IMG/VR virus record: IMGVR_UViG_3300029908_000017
Location: 1 to 64,000 of that record
From: a virus
DNA length: 64,000 nucleotides
Reading direction: 5' to 3' (one strand)
This document shows positions 4,700 to 61,944 of the stretch, one piece after another. Under the pieces are notes generated by a model, which was not told the origin of the DNA, ran no database searches, and worked only from the letters and a program-made list of their open reading frames with translations. Both the position numbers and the translations under genes were made by a program. The first letter of the stretch is position 1. Every line of letters begins with the position of its first letter.

Positions 4700-5518
4700 T
4701 TAAACTACGATACTTAGAATCAATATTACAGATGTTGTACCCGTCGCGCCACCTGGATTAGAGGGAGAAACATAGTCACTAGGCCAAGGAGTATTTCCAA
4801 AGAGATTAGTGTTCCAAAAAATACCTGTATCTGTAAACAGTACAGTTTTATCATCTAGAATTACACCATTCTTTTCAATGTATGCCAAATTCAATTTCGG
4901 TACAGCTGCTGGATAAATCAATGGTAAATTTGGATCGGTAGCAATATTATATTTAAAGTAGTAGCCTGCAGGATCTGCTCCAGAAGTAGGAAGCCATCCC
5001 CTTTCTGATGTGTTTGGACTAGGAATGGTAATCATTCCACCAGTATTAACAGGAATACCGCATGGTAACGCAAAAAGAGGAAGACGATAAAGAGTATTGC
5101 TAACATATGTGTTCACATTGATATCTCCTGAAGTAATGCTATAAACTGATCCTTGCGCCAAATTCTGTATTAACTCAAAATCGGTTACGAGACTTTGAAT
5201 TTCTTGCAAAATAGTATCCAGCACACTATTTAGATACTCTACTGTGTTGGCGACTAAACAAACCTGATAGTCTAAAAAGTATGAAGTATCGGAAGTGGGT
5301 ACTCCTTGTCCAAGTGTTTCCAGTTGATTGGGTGTGCCTACAGCTGCAAAAATATCGGTTACACCTCCATTAATATTTCTAGTTCTTTGTTTGACAAAGA
5401 TGTACTTAGTGATATTTTGAGCAGAAGTAATCTCCAACGTCATTTGATAGCTACTTAAGTTTGGTATATAAACCGTCGCTGATTGTAGCAAGGTTACTTG
5501 CGCAGATTGAATAGCCAT
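4700..5518 (-). CDS. Putative virion structural protein (start revised to ATG 5518)
   Basis: T/S/N/P-rich, charge-poor composition; promoter-like element ends 7 nt before ATG 5518. Confidence 0.5.
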   Translation of the reverse strand: MAIQSAQVTLLQSATVYIPNLSSYQMTLEITSAQNITKYIFVKQRTRNINGGVTDIFAAVGTPNQLETLGQGVPTSDTSYFLDYQVCLVANTVEYLNSVLDTILQEIQSLVTDFELIQNLAQGSVYSITSGDINVNTYVSNTLYRLPLFALPCGIPVNTGGMITIPSPNTSERGWLPTSGADPAGYYFKYNIATDPNLPLIYPAAVPKLNLAYIEKNGVILDDKTVLFTDTGIFWNTNLFGNTPWPSDYVSPSNPGGATGTTSVILILSIVV

Positions 5519-5525
5519 TGAAAAA

Positions 5526-5554
5526 AGGATAACCGATAATGAATGAAGAAGCAA
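5526..5554 (-). promoter_or_regulatory. sigma70-like promoter, near-leaderless
   Basis: TTGCTT-N17-TATCCT-N7-ATG(5518). Confidence 0.45.
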
Positions 5555-5835
5555 GACCAGAGGTAAACGAACAAATTGAATTAATTACAACCAAATTACA
5601 AAAAGCTTTAGATGGGTTTGTTTTTAATTATGATTCTGGTAATTCGTTAAAATTATTAAGGGAAAAAGTGAGTTACGAGTTGGAGACACACGGTTATTGT
5701 GGGTTTCCTGTTATTTCTTATGAACTACGCGAAATTGATAAAGATTTATTAGAAGGTCATGTGATTATCGAATTACCTAAATTAGTTCAACTCAACTTTT
5801 TTTGTAATGAAAGTGGTTGCACAGTTGTAAAATAA
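5539..5835 (+). CDS. Hypothetical protein
   Basis: 98-aa ORF starting the plus-strand island. Confidence 0.6.
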   Translation: MNEEARPEVNEQIELITTKLQKALDGFVFNYDSGNSLKLLREKVSYELETHGYCGFPVISYELREIDKDLLEGHVIIELPKLVQLNFFCNESGCTVVK

Positions 5836-12386: not shown

Positions 12387-12454
12387 GTTTAATTAATAAA
12401 GGTTACTGACATTGTGTGGTTGAATACTATATGTAACGGAACATCCGTTATTTT

Positions 12455-12491
12455 ACTATACCAGAATATATCAAATTATATGGGAGGGGGT
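12455..12491 (-). promoter_or_regulatory. C-box/extended -10 promoter copy 3
   Basis: ACCCCC-N23-GGTATAGT followed by the taacgga/tccgtta hairpin. Confidence 0.75.
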
Positions 12492-55557: not shown

Positions 55558-55876
55558 CTTTTAGATATATATTTTTATCGGTTTTTATAGGTATAGAATT
55601 TTCAGCTTGTTCAGGAATTTCTTGTAATGTAGACATTAACTTTTTATAAATACTGGCAACCTGCTTTTGAGTAAGTCCCAGACTTACCGAATCGGCTATA
55701 TTCGCTCGACTAAATGCACCAAAATTAGAATATTGGCGTAAATTGCTGGCTAACCCTGTCCCTGTGTATGCAATGGTTGTTTGATCTTTATCTAACCCTT
55801 GGTCTGCCCCAATAAATAAAGGATCATCATCAAAATATTGATTCCCTCTTACTCCAATGGGGTAGGAGATGGTCAT
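55535..55876 (-). CDS. Hypothetical protein ending IYLKDERALEI
   Basis: ORF track; shared C-terminal tag. Confidence 0.75.
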   Translation of the reverse strand: MTISYPIGVRGNQYFDDDPLFIGADQGLDKDQTTIAYTGTGLASNLRQYSNFGAFSRANIADSVSLGLTQKQVASIYKKLMSTLQEIPEQAENSIPIKTDKNIYLKDERALEI

Positions 55877-56325
55877 ATTTCCAAGTCCCTTTCATACTTT
55901 AAATACAACGACTTATCTACTTTTTTTGTAATAGTTTTTACATTAATAGCAGTAGGTAACGAAGGAGAAACATTAAGAGAAGTTATAGGAGATGTATTCT
56001 CCGAAGTATTATGACCCAATAAACGCAAAAAATTATTGTCCATAGTGGCACGTATTTGATCTGAATATGCATTTCCAATAATCCGTTGTGCCTCAACATT
56101 GGCTAATGCCAACTGATTGATTATAGATATACGCTCTCCATATTCTCGATCAATTACTTCAAGATCATTGCTTGAAAATTGTGATCTCGCGTAGTCTATT
56201 AAATCTGGCTGATTTTCTCGATAATCGTCGTTATAAAGAAAATCACGTAACGTAGATTTCGGTACATGAACAAGCTTCGTACCTTTAAACGGTTTTACCG
56301 GGCATCTAGAAAGACCTGTTAGCAT
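55873..56325 (-). CDS. Hypothetical protein ending LYLKYERDLEI
   Basis: ORF track; shared C-terminal tag. Confidence 0.75.
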   Translation of the reverse strand: MLTGLSRCPVKPFKGTKLVHVPKSTLRDFLYNDDYRENQPDLIDYARSQFSSNDLEVIDREYGERISIINQLALANVEAQRIIGNAYSDQIRATMDNNFLRLLGHNTSENTSPITSLNVSPSLPTAINVKTITKKVDKSLYLKYERDLEI

Positions 56326-57445: not shown

Positions 57446-58747
57446 ATGTCTCTTAATCTAAATGATTTTAATACGAAAGTCAATCTCTCGAAAATCGTGG
57501 AAAAGGTTGCAGAACCAAATACATATTTCATAAAATCGGTTTTTCCATTTGGCGAATTTGCCTGTAACCATGACTTTAGTAACGTTTTTAATGTTTTCGA
57601 TTTAATGGGTACGATTTATAACCCTGAACAACTATATACGCAGATCATCAATAATTGGCCTCAAGTATTGAGACAACCGATTGTTTGGCGTGAGTATTCC
57701 AGAGATAAAATTCATAAAGAATGTATTCTTCAGCAGAGTTGGGCAAATATCGTCATGGAGGCTCAAAAAGAAATAATTAATCATACTTACGTAATTCGTA
57801 AAGAAATAACTACAATTGCCAAACAATTTGAAGAAATGGGTTACTTTGGAGCAGTGATTAATGGAATGGGTCATATATCTCAAGATGTAATCAATAAACA
57901 TTCTGAGATAGCGTGGAATAATACAATCATTAATAACTATCGTTATCCCGTTATTGTACCTTACTACCATACACCTAATAAAACGCATATATCATATATT
58001 GAAGTATTTGATGCGCTGGATTCTAAATTAACTCGAAAAAAGATATATGCCCCCAACTACCACGGGTTTACTGGAAAATTAACGAATGTCCTTCCTGACT
58101 TTACGGCCTTAATGCATCGAGAAGGATGTTTATGGGATTACACACTAGATTACTGGAACAACACTCCTTTACTAATCGATAATGAATGTGGTATCGGTAC
58201 ATTACTAACTATTTTCAAAACCAATAAGACTACAAAATTTATTATTGACCCATTATCGATTATTAAAGAACGTAATCTATCTTCACAAATTTACGAAAAT
58301 CTACACATGCTTAGTCGAGAAGATATAACAATCATTCAAAATAAGTTGAATTTACAGGATATATATGACGATTGGTTAAAAATTCAGAATTATCAATATC
58401 TAGATGGAAGAACGATGTACTTCAAAAGTCCCGAAGGTTATTTTATGTCTAAATATGGAGAAGATAAGATTTATTTAACTAATTTTAGTCTAACTCGTAA
58501 AGGGCAAGAACTTCGAGAAGTGGGTAAACGTAAAATTGTGTTCTTTATTATCGAGGCTACTATGCATGATAAATCGATTATATTAGAAGTACCTGAACAT
58601 GTAATTAATTCCAAATCACGATTAAAATTATTTTTGATCAAGGAGTTTCATCGGCAGAATATGAATCCTCCTCGTTATTACAAAAGAATAACGGCAAACT
58701 TATTGGAAAACTTTATTTTCGACTGGTTTGAGTGTCAAAATGCTTAA
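57446..58747 (+). CDS. Hypothetical protein
   Basis: Isolated 433-aa plus-strand ORF; no catalytic motif recognised. Confidence 0.75.
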   Translation: MSLNLNDFNTKVNLSKIVEKVAEPNTYFIKSVFPFGEFACNHDFSNVFNVFDLMGTIYNPEQLYTQIINNWPQVLRQPIVWREYSRDKIHKECILQQSWANIVMEAQKEIINHTYVIRKEITTIAKQFEEMGYFGAVINGMGHISQDVINKHSEIAWNNTIINNYRYPVIVPYYHTPNKTHISYIEVFDALDSKLTRKKIYAPNYHGFTGKLTNVLPDFTALMHREGCLWDYTLDYWNNTPLLIDNECGIGTLLTIFKTNKTTKFIIDPLSIIKERNLSSQIYENLHMLSREDITIIQNKLNLQDIYDDWLKIQNYQYLDGRTMYFKSPEGYFMSKYGEDKIYLTNFSLTRKGQELREVGKRKIVFFIIEATMHDKSIILEVPEHVINSKSRLKLFLIKEFHRQNMNPPRYYKRITANLLENFIFDWFECQNA

Positions 58748-58949
58748 AGTATATCGGTTCGAACTCTTCATCCCATTCAGCATATACCACATCATGAATG
58801 GTAATAACTAAAATATTGCCAACTTTATAAAGCACATATCTGCCTTTTGTAGTATCAGTAGAACTTACGAGTTCTACTTCGGGTACTTTTAAATTCATGA
58901 CCAACCGCTGTAACTGTTTATTTACTATATTTCGTTGTTTGATTTGCAT
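58713..58949 (-). CDS. Hypothetical protein (start revised to ATG 58949)
   Basis: The track's TTG start lies inside the terminator hairpin. Confidence 0.55.
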   Translation of the reverse strand: MQIKQRNIVNKQLQRLVMNLKVPEVELVSSTDTTKGRYVLYKVGNILVITIHDVVYAEWDEEFEPIYFKHFDTQTSRK

Positions 58950-58962
58950 ATTTTTATAAATT

Positions 58963-59005
58963 AAAAAACACACACTCGCCAAGGATCGAGAAGTCGAGTG
59001 TGTGT
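58963..59005 (-). terminator. Intrinsic terminator closing the structured RNA
   Basis: acacacactcg-N16-cgagtgtgtgt followed by a U run. Confidence 0.8.
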
Positions 59006-59271
59006 AAAACTGAATATTCGTATCCGAATACCCATGTTTTAAGTTTACTTACAAAAGTGGTTCTCGTGTTGCATCAAGTCTACGCTCCGTTAACACACGG
59101 TCTACTTGATGCAGAAGGTCTATACGACCATCACGAGGCGCAATAGAGTCCAGGAATATTGCGCTAAACTCTCTTACCTGAGAGAACAGGTTTTGTTTAT
59201 CGAGGTAACGATAAGGTTGTAACTGTTTTTTTATTGTAACGATTCAGGACAGATAATCCCTCTTCGTTACA
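58963..59271 (-). ncRNA. Candidate ~310-nt structured non-coding RNA (family unknown)
   Basis: No convincing ORF; at least nine helices; bounded by a C-box promoter and a terminator; G-U pairs fix the minus strand. Confidence 0.75.
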
Positions 59272-59275
59272 TATT

Positions 59276-59312
59276 ACTATACCAAATTATATCCGAATAT
59301 TCGGAGGGGGGT
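59276..59312 (-). promoter_or_regulatory. C-box/extended -10 promoter copy 4
   Basis: ACCCCC-N23-GGTATAGT; palindrome tccgaatattcgga in the spacer. Confidence 0.75.
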
Positions 59313-59321
59313 GGGGTGAGC

Positions 59322-60008
59322 TTAAATATAAGGTATCACTTGAAAATCCGTATCCGCGTTAGAAGTAGTGGATACAAATGGAGGCCAAGAGGGTTTCAAT
59401 GTTCCACGATTTAATCCTCCTTGTAGCGATTCAGGATTAGGACTAAACGCAGCATACTGAAAATCAAAATATGTTTTACCAACTAATAAAGTCCTGGGCT
59501 TAATATCGTTTAGTTGACTGACTCGCTCAACCGCCCAAATATCCAGTTCAAAACTTCCTGCAATCAAACAATCCGTACTGGCATTGGGAATGAATACAAC
59601 AAAATGATTAGGTACTTTATCATCTATGTAAATACCATTACCCAGACTTCCTTGCCACACAACTACAAGGTTATAAACATTCGATTTTACAATCGCTTGT
59701 AGATTATATCTCTTAACGTCAATACTTTGAGTATTAATGAATAAAAATGTATCAAAAATAATGTCTTCTCCCTGATAAAATACACCTGTCGATAAATCGC
59801 TACCTATATAGTTTGTTCCGGGTATCCCTGCTGTATTAATAGGATTTGGAGAAGGGGATGTATTATTGACTCGGGGAATAAACGTAGTTTTATTATATTG
59901 CAAACTACCTGCGTAATTATTTAAATTTATTGGAACAGATATATTTTGCGTACTAGCCTGACTTGGTTCAAAATTAGTTGGTTGATTTAAAGGTACAATT
60001 ATAGACAT
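59322..60008 (-). CDS. Putative virion structural protein
   Basis: Beta-rich, N/T/P-rich, FYQGE-x-I-x-F and G-x-F-x-LD pattern. Confidence 0.45.
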   Translation of the reverse strand: MSIIVPLNQPTNFEPSQASTQNISVPINLNNYAGSLQYNKTTFIPRVNNTSPSPNPINTAGIPGTNYIGSDLSTGVFYQGEDIIFDTFLFINTQSIDVKRYNLQAIVKSNVYNLVVVWQGSLGNGIYIDDKVPNHFVVFIPNASTDCLIAGSFELDIWAVERVSQLNDIKPRTLLVGKTYFDFQYAAFSPNPESLQGGLNRGTLKPSWPPFVSTTSNADTDFQVIPYI

Positions 60009-60313
60009 ACTTGAATAAGTTTTTTGGTAACTTGATCTTGTCTATAATAACATATCTGTTCAACATTCAACATACTTTTCATTGTCAAAAAATCCTGGTC
60101 GGTCATTGATGTCAAGGCTGTCTCCAATTGTGGACGTATTTGAGCATAGGGATTTGTTTTTCCTCCACAAGACGAACAACCCGTTTTCGGTTGAGTATTT
60201 AAATGATTAATTAATGTACTCAACCGACTGAATGCTGGAATGGTCAGTAAACTTGGATTGTTATTCAACAGATGACTAAGCTGAGAAGCGGAAGTGATAG
60301 ATAACTTGCTCAT
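59999..60313 (-). CDS. Hypothetical protein with GCSSCG motif
   Basis: 104-aa ORF with its own promoter. Confidence 0.65.
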   Translation of the reverse strand: MSKLSITSASQLSHLLNNNPSLLTIPAFSRLSTLINHLNTQPKTGCSSCGGKTNPYAQIRPQLETALTSMTDQDFLTMKSMLNVEQICYYRQDQVTKKLIQVCL

Positions 60314-60319
60314 CCTTCC

Positions 60320-60347
60320 AATATACTGATTAATAACTAAAAAACAA
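60320..60347 (-). promoter_or_regulatory. sigma70-like promoter, near-leaderless
   Basis: TTGTTT-N16-TATATT-GGAAGG-ATG(60313). Confidence 0.55.
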
Positions 60348-60370
60348 ATGAGAATATCTCAAATGTTTCC

Positions 60371-60417
60371 GAGACAGGGGAATTTACCCCTGTCTCTATA
60401 TTTCGCTTGCGCGAAAT
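60371..60417 (-). terminator. Tandem 3' hairpins after 60417..60764
   Basis: atttcgc-GCAA-gcgaaat and gagacagggg-N6-cccctgtctc. Confidence 0.6.
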
Positions 60418-60764
60418 TACCGGCTCTTGGAAAGAACCGCAGTTGCCTGCTCTTCTTCCACTTCAGCTTCGGTGGGTACCTGAATTTCCTCAACAATGAC
60501 CGGAACTTCCGGAATATTGTCATGGACCTTTTGTACTGTGTTCTTGACCTTCTTCACACCCAGTCCAACAAAGCCAAGCATGCGAGTCTTGACGCTGGTG
60601 GCCTTGGCTTTGACGAGTGGCCAATAAGCCACGCTAAAGCCTCCAATAACTGCTCCAGCTGCCGCTGATGCTGCTACAACAGTAGCCACACCAGTTTTGG
60701 TCAGAACAATGTTAGTCGAGGGGGTGTTGACATTGATCGTCAATGTATCGGTAGGGGTTTCCAT
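60417..60764 (-). CDS. Single-TM protein with elevated GC and strong SD
   Basis: AAAGAVIGG TM segment, aagga upstream, dedicated promoter and 3' hairpins. Confidence 0.75.
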   Translation of the reverse strand: METPTDTLTINVNTPSTNIVLTKTGVATVVAASAAAGAVIGGFSVAYWPLVKAKATSVKTRMLGFVGLGVKKVKNTVQKVHDNIPEVPVIVEEIQVPTEAEVEEEQATAVLSKSR

Positions 60765-60835
60765 ATAATGATCCTTTCGTTATTTTTGTTTACAAGAATT
60801 CACCTCACAAGAGATAAACCCTTCTTTGATATACT

Positions 60836-60872
60836 ACTATACCAATATACCCTCTATTCACCCAAGGGGGGT
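60836..60872 (-). promoter_or_regulatory. C-box/extended -10 promoter copy 5
   Basis: ACCCCC-N23-GGTATAGT followed by a 13-bp G-U-rich hairpin. Confidence 0.75.
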
Positions 60873-61865: not shown

Positions 61866-61907
61866 ATTTGATCCTTGTTCTTGAGAACATAAGTATTCCC
61901 ATTACTT

Positions 61908-61944
61908 ATTATACCGATAAATACCCAATACACCTAAGGGGGGT
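61908..61944 (-). promoter_or_regulatory. C-box/extended -10 promoter copy 6
   Basis: ACCCCC-N23-GGTATAAT. Confidence 0.75.

Follow-up and report, generated by a model that had tools for sequence, protein, structure and literature searches.

A candidate stand-alone structured RNA at a phage locus where distant relatives carry tmRNA and tRNA genes

Introduction

The locus described here raises the question of what a phage keeps in a gap of 372 nt between two of its reading frames, the gap extending on the minus strand from the stop codon of a gene encoding a 228-aa protein (59322) to the ATG of a 78-aa ORF (58949). Most of the gap is taken up by an ORF-free unit of ~305 nt (minus strand, ~59270 to 58963), reading from a predicted promoter to a predicted terminator. 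A sequence-only reading of the same DNA had seen in it a highly structured RNA of about 310 nt with complementary loops, either a new phage non-coding RNA or a riboswitch or attenuator of the gene that follows. The present analysis asks whether the unit could be a stable RNA in its own right, a leader of the 78-aa ORF, an element acting at the level of DNA, or a remnant. The window, i.e. the whole stretch of DNA that was analysed, covers 64 kb, and all the positions given refer to it unless a relative is named.

The source record and its phage

The window represents the first 64 kb of an IMG/VR virus record of 74,376 bp, for which the completeness estimated by CheckV is 36%. The record is typed as phage, has a G+C content of ~34% and carries nearly all of its genes on the minus strand; its gene products include a large terminase, a DNA polymerase of family A, a helicase resembling DnaB and a protein resembling SbcC. 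Concerning the host, the gene starts of the window are A/T-rich with Shine-Dalgarno boxes absent, and the contig of one distant relative was binned with a Saprospiraceae MAG; on these two grounds the phage probably infects a bacterium of the phylum Bacteroidota, which is a reasonable guess.

The phage is a large one from peat soil. At least a part of the stretch is present in 21 sequencing runs, 20 of them labelled as peat metagenome and one, with a small share, as seawater, and near-identical DNA occurs in ~20 peat-metagenome runs, no RNA run being among those listed. The contigs from four peat runs are identical in sequence to the window and therefore yield no variants for covariation. The only tRNA detected by ARAGORN in the window, a tRNA-Met at 1873-1944, is situated 57 kb from the RNA locus, and the ORF at 55873-56325 shows a weak match to putAbiC, below the threshold.

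Promoter and terminator

The signals found at both ends of the unit, together with the ORF behind it, are as follows:

59276 to 59311, minus strand: predicted promoter, with a C-tract (59311-59303) and an extended −10 box TGGTATAGT (59284-59276)
59305 to 59292, minus strand: palindrome TCCGAATATTCGGA, 14 bp, inside the promoter spacer
690-725, 2675-2711, 12454-12490, 59275-59311, 60835-60871 and 61907-61943, minus strand: promoter-like motif copies from a pattern search
58963 to 59005, minus strand: predicted intrinsic terminator, with a perfect, G+C-containing 11-bp stem (59005-58995/58978-58968), a 16-nt loop and a U-run (58968-58963)
58713 to 58949, minus strand: 78-aa ORF, its last 35 nt overlapping a convergent 433-aa gene

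The pattern CCCC-N22-26-GGTATARTA occurs in six copies in the window versus 0 expected, all of them intergenic and on the minus strand only, and the pattern TGGTATARTA in five copies versus 0.5 expected; no −35 box of the TTGACA type is found at the six promoter-like copies. The copy preceding the RNA, a promoter predicted by sequence pattern, possesses both the C-tract and the extended −10 box of the class. Since this copy ends at 59275, transcription would start near G59270, at the foot of the first hairpin of the RNA.

All six motif copies have a hairpin within ~15 nt downstream, the sequences of these hairpins being unrelated to each other, and for this reason the first hairpin of the RNA is probably a generic 5′ stabiliser belonging to the promoter class, which would leave 59235-58963 as the RNA-specific part. 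Five of the six promoters reach the ATG of a protein gene after 30-70 nt, the copy in front of the RNA being alone in having ~300 ORF-free bases behind it.

As far as the terminator is concerned, its loop of 16 nt is atypically large, and a consensus terminator scan missed it because that scan admits no loops outside 3-8 nt; it is on the minus strand alone that the stem leads into a U-run. The earlier proposal that the RNA has a promoter and a terminator of its own is thus supported, at the level of sequence patterns, by the six-copy phage promoter motif upstream and by the predicted intrinsic terminator at the end.

Predicted fold of the RNA

The minus strand folds far better than its dinucleotide shuffles, as expected for the structured RNA of ~310 nt proposed earlier: for a 346-nt stretch, the minimum free energy (MFE) is −107 kcal/mol versus −75.6 ± 5.6 kcal/mol in the shuffles (z −5.67), with 0 of 100 as good. 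Each of five sub-stretches folded singly is an outlier as well (z −3.0 to −4.3), so that the signal does not come from the terminator alone, and in a GC-corrected scan of the 64 kb the segment with the RNA ranks top of 412 minus-strand segments of 310 nt (z −4.2). It should be kept in mind that a good fold score is insufficient on its own to show function. Second in the window by degree of structure is the region 60120-60620 (minus strand, z −8.3 over 501 nt); at 60350-60417, three consecutive intergenic hairpins, the last of them followed by a U-run, lie between a 115-aa and a 104-aa ORF.

The fold, a ViennaRNA prediction made on 59270-58958 of one sequence, consists of the following elements, given from the 5′ end:

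59236 to 59270, minus strand: 5′-terminal hairpin, outer stem 59270-64/59242-36 of 7-8 bp and inner stem 59260-56/59250-46 of 5 bp with two G.U pairs; pair probabilities 0.96-0.98, z −3.8
59215 to 59235, minus strand: A-rich linker, the A-run of which can pair with the 3′ U-run (helix probability 0.58)
59197 to 59214, minus strand: hairpin with a 6-bp stem (59214-09/59202-197) and the loop UUACCU (59208-59203), probability at least 0.79
59169 to 59191, minus strand: switch or pseudoknot segment, forming either the hairpin CUCUC/GAGAG (59184-80/59173-69) with the loop AGGUAA (59179-59174) or an alternative stem
59191-87/59180-76, minus strand: the alternative stem, ACCUG/CAGGU (ViennaRNA)
59138 to 59164, minus strand: hairpin with a perfect 8-bp stem (59164-57/59145-38) and an 11-nt loop, probability at least 0.86
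59063 to 59137, minus strand: three-way junction with a 6-bp closing stem (59137-32/59068-63); z −4.26, 0 of 200 shuffles as good
59129-26/59120-17, minus strand: short hairpin of the junction, 4 bp (ViennaRNA)
59113-04/59079-70, minus strand: long arm of the junction, 10 bp, with an asymmetric internal loop and a 4-bp hairpin 59100-97/59090-87 (ViennaRNA)
59005 to 59041, minus strand: hairpin of 10 bp (59034-25/59020-11) with two G.U pairs, a GAUA loop and an A-U stem extension, probability 0.99

The stems listed by the sequence-only reading were recovered by ViennaRNA, including the terminator stem as 59004-58995/58978-69 ahead of the U-run, the lowest pair probability within each helix being 0.59-1.0. 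The G.U pairs that it had described as valid on the minus strand only number four, two of them in the inner stem of the 5′-terminal hairpin and two in the hairpin 59034-59011; nearly all the helices are otherwise perfectly Watson-Crick paired. The helix 59049-54/59217-22, suggested there to close the structure, exists as a weak, A-U-rich option of 6 bp and is absent from the MFE structure.

The complementary loops are present as described: UUACCU (59208-03) and AGGUAA (59179-74), borne by neighbouring hairpins, are exact complements over 6 nt. When the loop letters were reshuffled, at least six complementary bases appeared in two neighbouring loops in 0.16% of trials and in any two loops in 2.5%, both values coming from a test picked after the loops had been seen. 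The competing pairing of ACCUG with CAGGU also proved to be real and of about equal energy, the two hairpins swapping as the MFE structure depending on the context. Both stems of the switch segment formed together would give an H-type pseudoknot, tightly built and joined by very short loops, a geometry obtained by reasoning and not by computation.

Coding potential and known RNA families

In agreement with the view that the RNA contains no long ORF, its region has no canonical-start ORF of at least 30 aa on the minus strand. There is a stop-free frame of 64 codons, with a codon score of 0.29 bits per codon, i.e. in the overlap zone of true and spurious frames. It offers no usable start codon (no ATG, GTG or TTG giving more than ~14 aa); Pfam gave nothing significant for it and PHROG nothing at all, a search of 5.8 billion proteins brought up no homologue, and it does not resemble the 78-aa ORF. 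A hidden protein gene in the RNA was rejected on account of the start codon, family match and homologue that it lacks. A 16-nt motif of the linker (59233-59218) recurs 309 nt downstream in the 78-aa ORF (58924-58909) in the same reading frame; it has just two copies in the 64 kb, and 4 of 500 shuffles score as high. A tandem duplication of the 78-aa ORF was rejected, this single motif being all that the two have in common.

Concerning the known classes of non-coding RNA, none of which the sequence-only reading had recognised, the covariance models of Rfam 15, including those of pRNA, ROOL, GOLLD, 6S, RNase P, SRP, ribozymes and riboswitches, gave no match in 58700-59500, even at E ≤ 10; what appears below the thresholds is restricted to chance-level snoRNA and t44 matches (12-22 bits versus thresholds of 38-50). 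The RNA is likewise not a tmRNA, as had been stated: RF00023 has no match at the locus (E ≤ 10) and ARAGORN finds no tmRNA in the window. Nor did RF00023 detect a tmRNA in the whole 74-kb record, which corresponds to ~36% of the genome, two thirds of it missing. A degenerate tmRNA was considered and rejected, since an nhmmer profile built from the tmRNAs of six relatives has no match in 58601-59500 at E ≤ 1000. Antisense pairing was rejected as well: the longest complement of the RNA in a Saprospiraceae rRNA operon measures 10 nt, at or below chance, and that in the phage's own transcripts at most 12 nt, which is at chance level.

Relatives of the RNA itself were sought in several ways. A blastn search of 50,697 INPHARED phage records returned no homologue; a covariance model (R1) built from the 152-nt core of this one sequence had no match in the whole records of four relatives or in 23 loci; and scans of IMG/VR seeded with three exact 17-18-mers yielded chance sites only, one of them in a DNA polymerase gene.

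The locus in distant relatives

When the proteins flanking the gap were searched against GTDB genomes, JGI metagenomes and IMG/VR, only relatives at 22-37% identity were obtained, in which the corresponding slot holds tmRNA or tRNAs; nearer protein relatives are found on short contigs of 2-3 kb (P0002, P0003 and P0004 with 60%, 56% and 46% identity, respectively). Profile searches with the proteins on either side of the gap brought up no solved structure. The slot is marked by the following gene:

59322 to 60008, minus strand: gene of the 228-aa protein, the homologues of which are followed by tmRNA in relatives

The homologues of the 228-aa protein exhibit ~30% identity and those of the 433-aa protein 22-27%, originating from phage records of 128-204 kb and from metagenome contigs. 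The gene order is conserved: genes for ~240, 305, 108 and 228 aa are succeeded by the gap, by the convergent gene for ~430 aa and then by a gene for ~350 aa. Among 16 distinct relatives with a readable slot, 14 have tmRNA and/or tRNA genes in it, 12 of them a tmRNA (Rfam 75-156 bits or ARAGORN), in several cases with a tRNA too, and the other two tRNAs only. The tmRNAs of the relatives have the box TGGTATAAT upstream and, in many cases, a tRNA-Met or a tRNA bearing a group I intron downstream.

The locus thus appears to be a slot for stable-RNA genes, since the relatives hold tmRNA, tRNAs or another folded RNA there, and the RNA of the window would be the occupant of this slot in the present phage. 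This is an argument by analogy, because at 22-30% protein identity the relatives in question are very remote. The sequence-only reading was right in not calling the RNA a tmRNA, but it missed that the slot is the position of tmRNA in relatives.

The content of the slot in the individual relatives is diverse. In most of the slot tmRNAs, ARAGORN reads an unusually long tag of ~30 aa; tags of ~30-33 aa are encoded by the tmRNAs of the loci L005 (6154-6552), L007 (5672-6078), L009 (5522-5950), L010 (5732-6145) and L027 (7043-7444); the tag of the E. coli tmRNA has 10 aa. The tags of the slot tmRNAs end mostly with LAA or MAA, that of L027 with SVL. Directly 3′ of the tmRNA, a group I intron (Rfam 68.7 bits) is present in L010 (6162-6371) and L012 (1146-1355), where, judged by eye, it splits the anticodon loop of a putative CAT tRNA. 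The slot of a metagenomic relative, L017, carries an array of six tRNAs, one of which (5110-5184) has the anticodon CTA and would read the TAG stop. The abiF RNA motif was found just past the conserved ~350-aa gene in L007 (8530-8567) and L018 (1754-1793), with 41-42 bits versus a threshold of 37.

Two further candidate RNAs were seen in the slot. The marine relative L024 (138 kb) contains at 5288-5771, on the minus strand, an ORF-free, strongly folded unit of 484 nt (z −4.65), bounded by a promoter-like box and a terminator-like hairpin, for which no Rfam family came up at E ≤ 1. Between the tRNAs and the convergent gene, L008 (7308-8016) and L009 (6250-6807) share a conserved stretch of ~500-560 nt devoid of ORFs, with a strong terminator-like hairpin at its end and no Rfam family matched (at E ≤ 1 for L008, at gathering thresholds for L009); it represents a second candidate RNA of the slot. 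Homology of the RNA of the window to either of them was rejected, no similarity being seen.

A stand-alone RNA and its alternatives

With its own signals and its position in a stable-RNA slot, the unit is read here, with a slight leaning in favour, as a stand-alone stable non-coding RNA carried by the phage in that slot. Direct support exists for the fold, as measured against shuffles, for the promoter family and the predicted terminator, for the missing coding signal and for the synteny of the slot. Transcription, the ends of the transcript, the action in trans and all functional roles of the RNA are what we infer. The phage-specific promoter, with its C-tract and extended −10 box, would initiate transcription near 59270, and the transcript of ~305 nt would begin with the protective 5′ hairpin and finish with the intrinsic terminator near 58963. 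Its body would be composed of near-perfect hairpins set on A-rich linkers, with a kissing or pseudoknot module and the three-way junction, and the complementary loops may lock the shape of the 5′ domain or join copies of the RNA. During infection the RNA would most likely work in trans, in the manner of a stable RNA, because it occupies the slot used by relatives for tmRNA and tRNAs.

There are points that speak against a stand-alone RNA: it is represented by a single sequence with no homologue found, the terminator loop is unusual, the relatives are very distant, and the other five promoters of the class lead into protein genes shortly downstream. The designation "new phage ncRNA" used previously is partly supported: the phage record, the absence of an Rfam match, the phage promoter, the terminator and the slot favour it, but the homologue search added no second member.

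The main rival, which we regard as rather doubtful, is a cis-acting leader of the 78-aa ORF, i.e. an attenuator, a riboswitch or a protein-controlled terminator. The promoter would then serve the ORF, and the RNA would sense a ligand, a protein or a phage antiterminator and gate the polymerase at the terminator. The layout fits this, because the ATG of the ORF lies 14 nt after the U-run, as had been observed before, the ORF itself lacks a C-tract promoter, and the five remaining members of the promoter class each drive a protein gene directly. Competing pairings are available too, CAGGUAA being able to pair with UUACCU or ACCUG, and 59107-59090 offering a possible, weak antiterminator in which 14 of 18 bases pair with the 5′ arm of the terminator; the 16-nt motif is, moreover, common to the leader and the ORF. 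The antiterminator strand is, however, locked in a perfect 10-bp helix ~90 nt upstream, and it would pair far less stably than the two arms of the 11-bp terminator stem do; no known aptamer or leader family was matched, and no sensor domain is visible. Some 300 nt of structure would also be much for one 78-aa gene of ambiguous coding status, the codon-usage score of the ORF being ambiguous, its homologue search returning itself alone, and no Pfam or PHROG match being found. Finally, terminators of the hairpin and U-run type precede promoter-less genes elsewhere in the phage (60350-60417), so this arrangement is not specific to regulation.

It is improbable that the region works as DNA, in the form of operator palindromes or an origin-like region, with the RNA fold being a by-product of inverted repeats. 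Such a view would explain the near-perfect Watson-Crick helices and the good fold on both strands (z −4.96 for the plus strand of the same region). It would also accommodate the 10-mer TATTCGGATA, present in exactly two copies in the 64 kb, one at 59290-99 in the spacer palindrome of the promoter and the other at 59021-30 in the hairpin 59034-59011; these copies, 269 bp apart, could be a pair of protein-binding (operator) sites. On the other hand, the hairpins differ in sequence and contain no iterons, only the minus strand has the promoter, the U-run and the G.U pairs, the GC skew has no turning point at the RNA locus, and the relatives keep RNA genes in the slot.

A decaying or functionless remnant (of a lost tmRNA/tRNA cluster or a duplicated gene start) or a hidden small protein gene is similarly improbable: the uniqueness of the RNA, the codon score of the 64-codon frame and the in-frame repetition of the ORF motif would suit it, but decay would not be expected to leave ~ten helices that are nearly perfect, nor a fold score unsurpassed in the 64 kb, tmRNA similarity is missing even at E ≤ 1000 with the profile of the relatives' tmRNAs, and the coding version would have to do without a usable start, a homologue or any resemblance to the 78-aa ORF.

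Returning to the stand-alone RNA, a bolder version of it can be formulated, according to which the RNA founds a new class of stable phage RNAs replacing the tmRNA/tRNA cargo, its loops pairing between molecules, in the way of phi29 pRNA, ROOL or GOLLD, so that a multimer of RNA alone would form and act on the translation apparatus of the host; we consider this a long shot.

Comparison with known systems

The pRNA of phage phi29 has a three-way junction and two mutually complementary loops, through which its copies pair into a ring. The RNA of the window resembles it in combining a three-way junction and two complementary loops in one molecule, but it differs in having no Rfam match and in coming from a phage of ~200 kb with a classical large terminase that is not phi29-like; its loops are, in addition, only 6 nt long and borne by adjacent hairpins 12 nt apart, so they could kiss within the molecule.

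The species 1 and 2 of phage T4 (rnaC and rnaD) are small stable RNAs without a known function, with genes lying among those of tRNAs, and are processed from a tRNA precursor. The present RNA, in contrast, has a predicted promoter and terminator of its own, and no relation to them in sequence or structure is expected. With the leaders that control terminators it shares the succession of promoter, folded leader, intrinsic terminator and ORF as well as the competing pairings, differing from them by lacking a known aptamer match or a convincing antiterminator.

With regard to tmRNA (RF00023), documented in huge phages (PMC7162821), the likeness concerns the same slot and strand logic, and an extended −10 box, TGGTATAAT in the relatives versus TGGTATAGT here. 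Both would be stable RNAs, in the size range of 300-470 nt and with pseudoknot-like elements, the stability of the RNA of the window being a proposal. It lacks, however, a tRNA-like domain, a CCA-type 3′ end and a tag frame, and neither Rfam nor ARAGORN nor the profile matches it.

The nearest known kind is that of the structured phage RNAs near tRNA islands, ROOL and GOLLD, the RNA of the window belonging to neither family. These are phage-borne RNAs of unknown function, located near tRNA islands and having kissing loops, including those between RNA copies (bioRxiv 10.1101/2024.12.08.627333). The phage origin, a position that relatives use for stable-RNA genes and the complementary loops are what the RNA described here has in common with them, which differs in its length of ~305 nt versus ~580-800 nt or more and in having no Rfam match to either; its oligomerisation is pure conjecture.

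Islands of translation-related RNA genes are a feature of large phages, and the big folded RNAs found there, with their striking structures, are growing in number. What the present locus adds is one conserved slot in which the cargo varies between tmRNA, tRNA arrays, intron-bearing tRNA and unrelated folded RNAs matching no family, so that the slot represents a natural experiment in the swapping of RNA cargo. At present the RNA has the value of a well-documented candidate known from a single sequence; if it is expressed and stable, its compact design of kissing loops and a three-way junction would make it a tractable new model beside ROOL and GOLLD.
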